Part shown: one piece after another, positions 19,773 through 45,384 of the stretch
Layout of the letters: the number at the start of each line of letters is the position of its first letter
Position numbering within the stretch: position 1 is the first letter of the stretch
Assembly: GCF_000026545.1 (NCBI RefSeq)
Contig: NC_011601.1
DNA from: Escherichia coli O127:H6 str. E2348/69
GTDB taxonomy: Bacteria; Pseudomonadota; Gammaproteobacteria; Enterobacterales; Enterobacteriaceae
Direction: 5' to 3' (one strand)
DNA length: 64,000 nt
Made by a program: the position numbers and the translations under genes
Notes under the pieces: generated by a model
What the model saw: only the letters and a program-made list of their open reading frames with translations
The model's database searches: none
What the model was told of the DNA's origin: nothing

Positions 19773-21322
19773 CTGTCTCTTGATCAGATCTCCTGATCAA
19801 GAGACTTCATCACCAGGTAACCCTCAACCATATCCTGAAGTCTGAACCAGCCATCCCACATGACTACCCAACCGGGGCGACCGGTGCGTTTGCTGTCATG
19901 CCATCGCCCCAGTTTCGCCAGTTTCAGACAGGCCCATTTCAGTGTCGGCATCTGTGACGGAAGCGGTTTTCCTTCCAGCTTAACCCACAGCAGTTTCCAC
20001 TCTGTCGGCGTCAGTATTTTCTCACAGCTGTCATTTTGTGTTTCTTCACTGATACCGCCCTGCCGCAGGCCCAGCACCCGCACCGCGATAAACGCCTTGA
20101 TAACCACCATGCGCTCGAGGTTATCCCGGGTCTGCATTCGCAGCGATTCCACACATGTACCACCACTTTTCCACGCCTTGTGGTATTCCTCTATCAGCCA
20201 GCGTCGCTCGTAATGGCTGACGATACGTCGCGCATCGGCGGCACTCGCCACTTTTTCTGACGTCAGCAGATGCCAGCAGGCGCCGTCCTCTGCCTGCTCC
20301 CGGCAACAGACATACGTGAGCGGGAGCGCCTGGCCGCTGTTGTCGGGATTTTTTATGCTGACTTCGCTGTAACTGATGAACATCCGGGCCTGGCGGGCTG
20401 CCCGCCCGCCTTTTTGCATCACATTCAGCGTGTGGCTTCCCGCGGTTGCCAGGACTTCCGGCAGTTCGAAGAGCTTGCCGGGTGCTTCTTCCAGCCGGCG
20501 ATTCTGTGCTGCACGCACCACGAAGCGCTGCCCGTGGCTGACTTTATAATGCAGGTAATGCCAGATATCCGCTTCCCGGTCACAGACAGTGATTACCCGT
20601 TTCTGTATCTCCCCCAGCCGTTCGGCCATGCGCTCCGAAGCCTGCTGCCAGCGGTAACTTTCTTTTTCTTCATAGGGACGTTCTTTTCGCTGGTGCTTAA
20701 CACCGTAGGTGTCCGTGGCACGACTCCAGCGCTGCTGTTCGATAAGACCGACTGGCAGGGCGCTGTCGGGGGCGTACATCAGGACAGAGTGAGCCAGCAG
20801 CCCGCGCGTCTTCGGGTTAGTGGTGGTATTCCCCAGGTCATCAGATGCCGTACTGTGACTGAAGTTAATGGTGGTGGTGTCTTCCAGCGCGAGGAGCAGC
20901 GGATGAGCCTCACATGCCCTTACAGTGGCGGTAAATCCGGCTTCGGCAATGGCTTGCGGGGACACAGACGGGTTACGTATCAGGCGGTACGCACCTTCAA
21001 CCTGAGCAGTGGACTGGGATGATTTCACAATAGAAAGACCTGCATGCTGAGCGAGAGAAGAGGCCAGTGACACAAGGCGTCGTGTACGACGCGGATCACC
21101 GAGACGGGCATGTCCAAACTGCTCGTTAGCCCATGAATAACAATCAGAAAGTACCATAACAGACCCGAAGAAAATGAAATATAAGAGAAGATCAACAGGT
21201 GAGGAAAAAGTTCAAAAAATCGCTGCCGGGGAGGAAGGAAACTACCGGATGGAAAGAGTCCCCCTAAAGCAGACTGACAGACATCACAAATCCCCGGGTG
21301 GGGATTTGTGTATAAGAGACAG
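19773..21322 (-). mobile_element. IS4-family, IS50-like insertion sequence, copy 1 (1550 bp)
   Basis: Termini CTGTCTCTTGATCAGATCT (left) and revcomp CTGTCTCTTATACACAAAT (right), matching IS50 inside and outside ends as I recall them; single 457-aa transposase ORF; flanking direct repeat; identical second copy at 43835-45384. Confidence 0.9.
19784..21157 (-). CDS. IS50-like (Tn5-type) DDE transposase (457 aa)
   Basis: Tn5 Tnp-like motifs LALEDTT, VCDREAD and YERRWLIEEYHKAWKSG (DDE triad and YREK signature); stop codon lies inside the left terminal repeat as in IS50. Confidence 0.9.
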   Translation of the reverse strand: MVLSDCYSWANEQFGHARLGDPRRTRRLVSLASSLAQHAGLSIVKSSQSTAQVEGAYRLIRNPSVSPQAIAEAGFTATVRACEAHPLLLALEDTTTINFSHSTASDDLGNTTTNPKTRGLLAHSVLMYAPDSALPVGLIEQQRWSRATDTYGVKHQRKERPYEEKESYRWQQASERMAERLGEIQKRVITVCDREADIWHYLHYKVSHGQRFVVRAAQNRRLEEAPGKLFELPEVLATAGSHTLNVMQKGGRAARQARMFISYSEVSIKNPDNSGQALPLTYVCCREQAEDGACWHLLTSEKVASAADARRIVSHYERRWLIEEYHKAWKSGGTCVESLRMQTRDNLERMVVIKAFIAVRVLGLRQGGISEETQNDSCEKILTPTEWKLLWVKLEGKPLPSQMPTLKWACLKLAKLGRWHDSKRTGRPGWVVMWDGWFRLQDMVEGYLVMKSLDQEI

Positions 21323-21358
21323 GCCATGCGACAGGGTCATAAAAGTAAGAGGAATGAA

Positions 21359-22120
21359 TTAACGCGCCAGCCAACCGCCATCCACGGCAATGGTATAACC
21401 ATTCACATAATCTGAAGCGCTGGAGGCAAGGAACACCACCGGCCCCATCAGGTCACTCGGCAGTCCCCAACGGCCAGCTGGAATGCGGTCGAAAATTTCC
21501 GCGCTACGTTGTTCATCTGCCCGCAGTTGTTGAGTATTGTTGGTCGCCATGTAACCCGGAGCTATCGCATTAACATTAATGTTGTGTTTAGCCCATTCGT
21601 TCGCCATCAATCGCGTCACGCCCATCACACCGCTTTTTGATGCGGTATAAGAAGGCACACGGATCCCGCCCTGGAAGGAGAGCATTGACGCGATATTGAT
21701 AATCTTGCCGCCATTGCCTTGCGCGATAAAGTGTTTCGCCGCTGCCTGAGACATGAAGAATACGCTCTTGATATTCAGGTTCATGACATCGTCCCAGTCT
21801 TTTTCGCTGAATTCGAGAGCGTCTTCGCGGCGAATCAATCCGGCGTTATTCACCAGGATATCAATATGACCAAACTCAGCTACCGCGCGATCCAGCAGTG
21901 CTGGAATGCCATCAATCTTTCGCAGATCGGCGGTCAGGCTTAAAAAACGACGCCCCAGCGCCGTGACCTGCTTGATGGTTTCAGTCGGTTCAACGATGTT
22001 AATGCCAACAATGTCACAGCCCGCTTGCGCCAGCCCCAACGCCATCCCCTGGCCCAGCCCAGTATCACAACCAGTGACGACCGCAACTTTACCTTCGAGA
22101 GAAAATGCACTTAAAATCAT
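21359..22120 (-). CDS. kduD: 2-dehydro-3-deoxy-D-gluconate 5-dehydrogenase, SDR family (253 aa)
   Basis: Track ORF 253 aa, SDR glycine-rich motif VTGCDTGLG. Confidence 0.95.
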   Translation of the reverse strand: MILSAFSLEGKVAVVTGCDTGLGQGMALGLAQAGCDIVGINIVEPTETIKQVTALGRRFLSLTADLRKIDGIPALLDRAVAEFGHIDILVNNAGLIRREDALEFSEKDWDDVMNLNIKSVFFMSQAAAKHFIAQGNGGKIINIASMLSFQGGIRVPSYTASKSGVMGVTRLMANEWAKHNINVNAIAPGYMATNNTQQLRADEQRSAEIFDRIPAGRWGLPSDLMGPVVFLASSASDYVNGYTIAVDGGWLAR

Positions 22121-43825: not shown

Positions 43826-43834
43826 CCACCATGC
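43826..43834. repeat. 9-bp target-site duplication CCACCATGC flanking IS copy 2 (second copy at 45385-45393)
   Basis: Identical 9-mer immediately outside both IS termini; the duplicated ATG is the ygfK Met codon at the insertion point. Confidence 0.9.
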
Positions 43835-45384
43835 CTGTCTCTTGATCAGATCTCCTGATCAAGAGACTTCATCACCAGGTAACCCTCAACCATATCCTGA
43901 AGTCTGAACCAGCCATCCCACATGACTACCCAACCGGGGCGACCGGTGCGTTTGCTGTCATGCCATCGCCCCAGTTTCGCCAGTTTCAGACAGGCCCATT
44001 TCAGTGTCGGCATCTGTGACGGAAGCGGTTTTCCTTCCAGCTTAACCCACAGCAGTTTCCACTCTGTCGGCGTCAGTATTTTCTCACAGCTGTCATTTTG
44101 TGTTTCTTCACTGATACCGCCCTGCCGCAGGCCCAGCACCCGCACCGCGATAAACGCCTTGATAACCACCATGCGCTCGAGGTTATCCCGGGTCTGCATT
44201 CGCAGCGATTCCACACATGTACCACCACTTTTCCACGCCTTGTGGTATTCCTCTATCAGCCAGCGTCGCTCGTAATGGCTGACGATACGTCGCGCATCGG
44301 CGGCACTCGCCACTTTTTCTGACGTCAGCAGATGCCAGCAGGCGCCGTCCTCTGCCTGCTCCCGGCAACAGACATACGTGAGCGGGAGCGCCTGGCCGCT
44401 GTTGTCGGGATTTTTTATGCTGACTTCGCTGTAACTGATGAACATCCGGGCCTGGCGGGCTGCCCGCCCGCCTTTTTGCATCACATTCAGCGTGTGGCTT
44501 CCCGCGGTTGCCAGGACTTCCGGCAGTTCGAAGAGCTTGCCGGGTGCTTCTTCCAGCCGGCGATTCTGTGCTGCACGCACCACGAAGCGCTGCCCGTGGC
44601 TGACTTTATAATGCAGGTAATGCCAGATATCCGCTTCCCGGTCACAGACAGTGATTACCCGTTTCTGTATCTCCCCCAGCCGTTCGGCCATGCGCTCCGA
44701 AGCCTGCTGCCAGCGGTAACTTTCTTTTTCTTCATAGGGACGTTCTTTTCGCTGGTGCTTAACACCGTAGGTGTCCGTGGCACGACTCCAGCGCTGCTGT
44801 TCGATAAGACCGACTGGCAGGGCGCTGTCGGGGGCGTACATCAGGACAGAGTGAGCCAGCAGCCCGCGCGTCTTCGGGTTAGTGGTGGTATTCCCCAGGT
44901 CATCAGATGCCGTACTGTGACTGAAGTTAATGGTGGTGGTGTCTTCCAGCGCGAGGAGCAGCGGATGAGCCTCACATGCCCTTACAGTGGCGGTAAATCC
45001 GGCTTCGGCAATGGCTTGCGGGGACACAGACGGGTTACGTATCAGGCGGTACGCACCTTCAACCTGAGCAGTGGACTGGGATGATTTCACAATAGAAAGA
45101 CCTGCATGCTGAGCGAGAGAAGAGGCCAGTGACACAAGGCGTCGTGTACGACGCGGATCACCGAGACGGGCATGTCCAAACTGCTCGTTAGCCCATGAAT
45201 AACAATCAGAAAGTACCATAACAGACCCGAAGAAAATGAAATATAAGAGAAGATCAACAGGTGAGGAAAAAGTTCAAAAAATCGCTGCCGGGGAGGAAGG
45301 AAACTACCGGATGGAAAGAGTCCCCCTAAAGCAGACTGACAGACATCACAAATCCCCGGGTGGGGATTTGTGTATAAGAGACAG
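43835..45384 (-). mobile_element. IS4-family, IS50-like insertion sequence, copy 2 (1550 bp), inserted in ygfK
   Basis: Same termini and identical 457-aa transposase ORF as copy 1; perfect 9-bp target-site duplication. Confidence 0.92.
43846..45219 (-). CDS. IS50-like DDE transposase (457 aa), second copy
   Basis: Protein identical to the ORF at 19784..21157. Confidence 0.9.
   Translation of the reverse strand: MVLSDCYSWANEQFGHARLGDPRRTRRLVSLASSLAQHAGLSIVKSSQSTAQVEGAYRLIRNPSVSPQAIAEAGFTATVRACEAHPLLLALEDTTTINFSHSTASDDLGNTTTNPKTRGLLAHSVLMYAPDSALPVGLIEQQRWSRATDTYGVKHQRKERPYEEKESYRWQQASERMAERLGEIQKRVITVCDREADIWHYLHYKVSHGQRFVVRAAQNRRLEEAPGKLFELPEVLATAGSHTLNVMQKGGRAARQARMFISYSEVSIKNPDNSGQALPLTYVCCREQAEDGACWHLLTSEKVASAADARRIVSHYERRWLIEEYHKAWKSGGTCVESLRMQTRDNLERMVVIKAFIAVRVLGLRQGGISEETQNDSCEKILTPTEWKLLWVKLEGKPLPSQMPTLKWACLKLAKLGRWHDSKRTGRPGWVVMWDGWFRLQDMVEGYLVMKSLDQEI

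Follow-up and report, generated by a model that had tools for sequence, protein, structure and literature searches.

The question raised by this locus of Escherichia coli O127:H6 strain E2348/69 is how two identical insertion sequences (IS) came to lie in the same orientation, one downstream of kduD and one inside ygfK, and what becomes of the chromosomal segment between them. According to a repeat scan, the window analysed here, i.e., the whole stretch of 64,000 nucleotides (nt) from contig NC_011601.1, contains one direct pair as its sole long repeat. Extension base by base delimited an identical block at 19772–21322 and 43834–45384, in which the element proper comprises 1550 bp (19773–21322 and 43835–45384, same strand) with identity at 1550 of 1550 positions. 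The extra shared C at the left was assigned to the flank, since the terminal inverted repeats read CTGTCTC...GAGACAG and further copies of the element, ISEc13, end at the same CTG/CAG. A perfect repeat of 1550 bp cannot be due to chance. The two copies are separated by 22,512 bp and cover an outer span of 25,612 bp. Altogether, we consider it quite likely that ISEc13 was inserted here in two separate events and that the interval was lost from one laboratory stock, 'E2348/69 variety 2', by homologous recombination between the two copies.

Loss of the interval in one laboratory stock

Window positions 21323–43834 were found to be absent from two database records, namely NZ_LT827011.1 ('E2348/69 variety 2', Sanger via Imperial College) and NZ_LT903847.1 (EPEC1, derived from variety 2). 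Both records contain the araE-side flank joined to an IS as well as an IS joined to the ygfK 3' flank, in each case 100% identical to the window. The interval does not lie elsewhere in these genomes, as both were missing from the top ranks expected for a 100% match when it was searched against 5426 complete E. coli genomes, and three of the 5426 revealed no match whatever. In the supplement of the depositors, a 'gap2 between bp positions 3221322 and 3243834' of NC_011601 is listed with zero coverage, their mean coverage being 210x (Cepeda-Molero et al. 2017, S1 Text, PMC5685641). With an offset of exactly 3,200,000, gap2 corresponds to window positions 21322/3–43834, and its edges fall on the inner IS ends; the window thus almost certainly represents NC_011601 3,200,001–3,264,000. 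Other stocks have retained the segment, namely CP059840.2 (100% identical to the window) and the 4.96-Mb contig of GCA_053076565.1. Thus, the Imperial College/CNB lineage 'variety 2', parent of the effector-less strains EPEC1/EPEC0, was shown to have lost exactly the unique DNA between the inner IS ends. A preliminary description of this DNA had pointed to direct repeats of this length as substrates for deletion of the intervening segment, which is supported by the Imperial/CNB stock.

As the deletion is documented by a supplement statement and by consensus records derived from reads, we also considered that gap2 might reflect a failure of sequencing or mapping without any rearrangement. In this case, however, 22.5 kb of unique sequence of ordinary composition would have stayed uncovered at the depth given above, in the parent as well as in its derivative, and the gap edges match the inner IS ends to the base, which those of a coverage artefact would not. 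Another gap, at the potB/potC boundary, appears likewise biologically sensible, since it can be read as the putative loss of an integrated prophage. A technical failure is therefore highly improbable. Besides gap2, variety 2 displays a gap of 40.8 kb at potB/potC, one of 52 kb by other IS fragments and yghX, and one of 1.4 kb at IS1397; all three were checked for ISEc13 at their borders, and none is bounded by it. An independent long contig of the deletion was sought via the open reading frame (ORF) of 805 amino acids (aa) in the 3' part of ygfK, but the long contig shown displayed the parental arrangement, and the short-read contigs ended at the IS.

Homologous (RecA-type) recombination between the direct IS copies, within one chromosome or between sister chromosomes, would be expected to excise the interval because the copies form identical direct repeats of 1.5 kb. 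The product would be one hybrid IS, bordered towards araE by the duplication GCCATGCGAC of copy 1 and towards ygfK by the duplication CCACCATGC of copy 2, and the loss in variety 2 probably arose in this way. ISEc13 copies do recombine, as indicated by CP148541.1, in which two inverted copies about 60 kb apart (at c. 2.30 and 2.36 Mb) have no duplications of their own and carry each other's instead (CTGGTTCG and TTGGGGAG in window orientation). These swapped duplications are the signature of an inversion of about 60 kb by recombination between the two copies. In laboratory and evolving E. coli, deletions bounded by IS1, IS5, or IS150 occur by homologous recombination as well. The loss described here resembles them with respect to the long identical direct repeats, the dispensable DNA, the edges at the repeats, and the laboratory stock as its place of origin; it differs in that the evidence here consists of the missing unique DNA, the hybrid-IS junction being a prediction.

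Two points speak against recombination as the cause. The deletion represents a single event, shared by one stock and the strain derived from it, and not a measured rate, and the only public sequences of the deletion have two abutted IS instead of the single hybrid IS of homologous recombination. In LT827011.1 and LT903847.1, the two IS stand head to tail with a 0-bp spacer (...GAGACAG/CTGTCTC...), and the flanks are as predicted for a single-IS junction. Since two copies cannot remain after homologous recombination, and since both records lack precisely the two inner duplications, the transposase might have linked the inner ends of the two copies (the right one of copy 1, the left one of copy 2), leading to an (IS)2 dimer without spacer, which we first took as real. 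Tandem dimers are formed via site-specific deletion between direct copies by IS30, IS911/IS3, and IS21, and the junction written in LT827011.1 similarly abuts a right and a left end, with the interval removed precisely. The dimers of IS30, IS911, and IS21, however, possess a spacer of 2–3 bp and arise by a different chemistry, while the spacer of 0 bp in the ISEc13 junction is explained by the building of the records. Transposases of the Tn5 type excise via hairpins, which yields blunt ends, and no joining of ends is known for them.

The two records were made from MiSeq reads of 150–174 nt, which were mapped with BWA to NC_011601 and converted into a consensus from which uncovered stretches were removed (PMC5685641). 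The shift of the coordinates in LT827011.1 corresponds exactly to the length of gap1. To the base, the record length of 4,848,621 equals that of NC_011601, which we take to be 4,965,553, minus the four gaps. Because reads of the c. 28 other ISEc13 copies cover both flanking IS, the cutting of uncovered unique DNA inevitably brings the two copies into abutment, irrespective of the real structure. Moreover, no other abutted ISEc13 junction was found in the 5426 genomes. Based on this search, on the methods of the depositors, and on the length arithmetic, the transposase-made dimer was dropped as very unlikely, and the abutted junction is most likely an artefact of record building. At the real junction, one hybrid IS from homologous recombination is by far more likely than two copies.

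The element and its two insertions

The repeat was 100% identical over 1550 bp to features annotated in RefSeq as 'IS4-like element ISEc13 family transposase', the name following RefSeq. Its transposase is encoded by a single 457-aa ORF without frameshift, scored 514 bits against NCBIfam NF033590 (cut-off 160), and contains the Pfam domains Tnp_DNA_bind, DDE_Tnp_1, and Dimer_Tnp_Tn5. It aligned over its full length with structures of the Tn5 transposase (E 6e-84, c. 39% protein identity). The catalytic residues D93, D193, and E323 were identified together with the YREK motif (Y316-R319-E323-K330), the signature of the IS4 family being defined as Y-(2)-R-(3)-E-(6)-K (PMC2266710). Both IS ends open with 5'-CTGTCTCTT. 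The left end matched what we take to be the inside end of IS50 at 19 of 19 positions, both Dam sites included, while the right end, CTGTCTCTTATACACAAAT, matched the presumed sequences of the IS50 outside end and of the mosaic end at 17 of 19. Calculation of folding energies revealed a strong subterminal hairpin on the left (−21.6 kcal/mol, z −4.6) and on the right (−22.1 kcal/mol, z −4.9). The perfect 13-bp palindrome on the left includes the terminal repeat, so that an inverted copy of the end is located just internal to the end itself.

Altogether, the DDE/YREK residues in a single ORF, the inverted ends starting with 5'-CT, a duplication of about 9–10 bp, and the identity to a named element place the repeat in the IS4/IS50 subgroup; it is ISEc13, a cut-and-paste IS of 1550 bp belonging to the IS4 family, subgroup IS50/Tn5. 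Its likeness to IS50/Tn5 extends to the composition of the single-ORF transposase (N-terminal DNA-binding domain, DDE core, and Tn5 dimerisation domain), the DDE and YREK residues, the 5'-CTGTCTCTT ends, and a target duplication of about 9 bp. It differs in a duplication that varies from 8 to 10 bp in place of the fixed 9 bp of Tn5, in a strong preference for the centre of CCCY-N8-10-RGGG palindromes in contrast to the weak Tn5 consensus, and in its occurrence here as solitary direct copies, whereas the resistance transposon carries an inverted IS50 pair.

Sequences similar to ISEc13 were detected in 2991 of the 5426 genomes, and 873 harbored a near-full copy. A genome-wide count of further copies, as suggested in the preliminary description, yielded 30 chromosomal places and two on the large plasmid of E2348/69, the maximum among all 5426 genomes. 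Since strain 2022H047 is 99.9% identical across the interval and nevertheless has zero ISEc13 places, the expansion of the element is recent and lineage-specific.

For analysis of the insertion sites, each IS together with 1 kb of flank per side was compared with the same genome set, and a query coverage of at least 80% was obtained for either query in one of the 5426 genomes, that of E2348/69 itself. Among the other genomes listed, both sites were uninterrupted, with the flanks adjacent and the duplicated bases present once. In strain SCU-124, the empty site corresponding to copy 1 agreed exactly with the reconstruction and contained GCCATGCGAC once. For copy 2, the empty site in strain 2022H047 fitted the reconstruction with one single-nucleotide polymorphism and one CCACCATGC, and removal of copy 2 and one duplication in silico led to a ygfK ORF of 1032 aa. 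The interior consists of native syntenic core chromosome and is contiguous in 1954 genomes. Thus, as judged from these comparisons, the differing outer flanks, the own duplication of each copy, the empty sites elsewhere, and the native interior support two separate transposition events in the same orientation and not a composite transposon.

A composite transposon would be a unit of 25.6 kb that moved as one via its two outer ends, the left one belonging to copy 1 and the right one to copy 2. Two IS copies do flank a passenger segment here, and the outermost ends form a correct pair of left end and right end, so that mobilisation would be possible in principle. The outer flanks, however, form no single duplication (GCCATGCGAC on one side and CCACCATGC on the other), the gene order of the kduD–ygfK region is that of other E. 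coli, and each site is found empty in other strains. Such a transposon misses two of three defining features and is refuted as an account of the origin, with a probability that we regard as practically nil.

In addition to the independence of the insertions, the preliminary description had listed two direct, identical IS copies of 1550 bp with the transposase on the minus strand, a bracketed segment of c. 22.5 kb, its genes from kduD to 5' ygfK, and a separate flanking repeat for each copy. All of this was borne out by the data, i.e., by identity at 1550 of 1550 positions and 457-aa ORFs, by a distance of 22,512 bp, by the RefSeq annotation of the identical E2348/69 record, by two distinct duplications of 10 bp (GCCATGCGAC) and 9 bp (CCACCATGC), and, for the independence, by these duplications, the empty sites, and the native interior. 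In RefSeq, the bracketed genes are kduD, kduI, yqeF, yqeG, a tRNA-Gly gene, actS (=ygeR), xdhABC, ygeV, ygeW, dpaL (=ygeX), ygeY, hyuA, arcC (=yqeA), yqeB, yqeC, mocA, and the 5' 228 codons of ygfK. The positions of all features are summarised in Table 1. Within the segment (window c. 24,700–26,400), yqeG is directly followed by tRNA-Gly and actS/ygeR, and the ETT2 type III secretion remnant is absent from this place; K-12 presumably carries this remnant at the yqeG/tRNA-Gly/actS position.

Table 1. Features of the ISEc13 pair and its surroundings in the window (strand left empty for features without direction)
Feature	Position	Strand	Remarks
ISEc13 copy 1, 1550 bp	19773..21322	-	36 bp downstream of the kduD stop codon, araE-kduD intergenic
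ISEc13 copy 2, 1550 bp	43835..45384	-	interrupts ygfK after codon 228
Transposase gene of copy 1, 457 aa	19784..21157	-	ORF, NCBIfam, Pfam, Tn5 structure alignment
Transposase gene of copy 2, same as that of copy 1	43846..45219	-	ORF
Left terminal repeat	19773..19791	+	two GATC sites; arm of 13-bp perfect subterminal palindrome (hairpin 19775-19805)
Right terminal repeat CTGTCTCTTATACACAAAT	21304..21322	-	adjoins hairpin with 11-bp stem (21285-21310)
Copy 1 target duplication GCCATGCGAC, 10 bp, left	19763..19772		with 19753-19762, 3' half of the split kduD terminator
Copy 1 target duplication GCCATGCGAC, 10 bp, right	21323..21332		5' half of the split kduD terminator
Copy 2 target duplication CCACCATGC, 9 bp, left	43826..43834		single copy at the empty site of strain 2022H047
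Copy 2 target duplication CCACCATGC, 9 bp, right	45385..45393		single copy at the empty site of strain 2022H047
Native segment, 22,512 bp (kduD...mocA, tRNA-Gly, 5' ygfK)	21323..43834		RefSeq genes; synteny in other E. coli
ygfK 5' fragment	43150..43834	+	runs into the IS, stop at residue 231
ygfK 3' fragment	45385..47807	+	with the 5' fragment and minus one duplication, intact 1032-aa ORF

Target sites of ISEc13 and its aquatic relatives

Twelve target sites of ISEc13 were reconstructed, two from the window and ten from CP148541.1. The duplication comprised 8 bp at seven of the 12 sites, 9 bp at four, and 10 bp at one. The duplicated bases represent the centre of a short palindrome with arms CCCY...RGGG immediately outside (N8-10), e.g., CTCCCCC[GCTTCACGC]GGGGGAG-TTTT, GCCCCT[GCATAAAC]AGGGGC, and ACCCT[GCCATGCGAC]AGGGT, with the duplication in brackets. 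At least four of five flanking bases were complementary at 9/12 sites, compared to a background of 1.7% (binomial tail c. 3e-14), and CCC...GGG was present at 10/12 (background 0.15%), while the site of copy 2 displays the left half-site alone (ACCCTCT). That this pattern itself is real is near certain. Several of the target palindromes are intrinsic terminators, and the orientation of ISEc13 relative to the T tract was mixed.

The 23-mer at the right end, CTGTCTCTTATACACAAATCCCC, was found exactly in 81 loci of aquatic Gammaproteobacteria, namely of the genera Vibrio, Neiella, Shewanella, Aliagarivorans, Alishewanella, Rheinheimera, Photobacterium, and Aeromonas. A single transposase of these loci was compared, that of the Alishewanella element, and it was 50% identical to that of ISEc13. 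The outside flanks of these relatives revealed a loop-half, a GC arm, and TTTT in 60 of 77 distinct cases (background 6.6%), and AAAA in two. This means, on the evidence of the flanking sequences, that the aquatic relatives are inserted in the loops of terminators and prefer one orientation, with the right end beside the 3' arm and the T tract. They also possess a hairpin of their own with an inward-pointing T-run just inside the right end; ISEc13 has kept the hairpin without the T-run.

Such a distribution of sites could be explained by staggered cuts of 8–10 bp centred on the dyad, for which ISEc13 would need the CCCY...RGGG arms. The aquatic relatives would insert with one end by the 3' arm and T tract, so that the transposase gene would face against incoming host transcription. 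In case of homing, copy 1 in the kduD terminator would represent a typical event, and copy 2 at the half-site ACCCTCT in ygfK would be off-target. ISEc13 and the aquatic relatives might together constitute a Tn5-like clade whose members home to the apex of hairpins of the terminator type, and that this is both real and not yet described is a tentative proposal, which we would not dismiss and do not quite lean towards.

Precedents for the targeting of palindromes are IS231A (GGG-N5-CCC), IS186 (G/C-rich palindromes), and ISRm22 and IS1397 (repetitive extragenic palindromic (REP) sequences), all of which, like ISEc13, insert at the dyad of short palindromes with GC arms. Of these, ISRm22, a member of the IS4 family, was reported in REP elements (PMC1525189). 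ISEc13 differs from these precedents by arms outside the duplication that consist of a C-run followed by a G-run, and by targets that are terminator-type hairpins instead of REP elements; in the aquatic relatives, the orientation to the T tract is, in addition, strongly biased. No description of terminator-hairpin targeting was found in the literature searched, by a search that was not exhaustive and did not cover ISfinder.

Consequences for host genes and laboratory stocks

Copy 1 splits the terminator of kduD by insertion in its loop. Positions 19753–19762 and the left GCCATGCGAC constitute the terminator arm plus T tract on the minus strand. The empty site in SCU-124, GACCCTGTCGCATGGCAGGGTT-TTTT, scores as a terminator, and in the window no kduD terminator was found on that strand. 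Since kduD and the transposase gene are located on the same strand, read-through from kduID can presumably enter the IS.

Copy 2 inactivates ygfK at codon 228-229. A second defect was identified 4.6 kb downstream of this copy in xdhD (49965–52835), which carries a premature TAG at codon 422 of 956 (51228–51230) and is annotated with 'internal stop'. The reductive uric-acid pathway of E. coli starts with XdhD and YgfK as its first two enzymes (bioRxiv 10.1101/2025.05.19.654654). Because of ygfK::ISEc13 and the stop in xdhD, this pathway is dead in E2348/69, which may be part of the reason why the loss of the remaining genes in variety 2 was tolerated. As a further observation in this region, short-read contigs ERZ761548/49/53 from ENA begin at the ygfK-side IS end and continue with c. 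300 bp of xdhD and then with unrelated small ORFs, one of which revealed a weak Mor-like match. This suggests another insertion in xdhD in some samples derived from E2348/69.

The IS pair as such is an ordinary feature and represents a known, annotated IS of a published genome that behaves as direct repeats are known to do. Our analysis connects this pair with a 'gap' that had stood unexplained in a widely used laboratory stock, and it adds a warning on two RefSeq records as well as the target-site pattern. The stock behind EPEC1/EPEC0 has lost xdhABC, ygeV, ygeW, dpaL, ygeY, hyuA, arcC, yqeBC, mocA, kduDI, yqeFG, actS, and tRNA-Gly (glyU). Other stocks keep the 22.5 kb, and therefore metabolic or purine/urate phenotypes may differ between laboratories. 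The 'complete genomes' LT827011.1 and LT903847.1 represent the reference minus uncovered stretches, and their tandem IS junction is no evidence of IS dimers. In regard to the biology of the strain, E2348/69 cannot run the reductive uric-acid pathway. If the homing to terminator loops is new, ISEc13 and its relatives would provide a natural example of how targets are selected by a transposase closely related to the one most used in laboratories.

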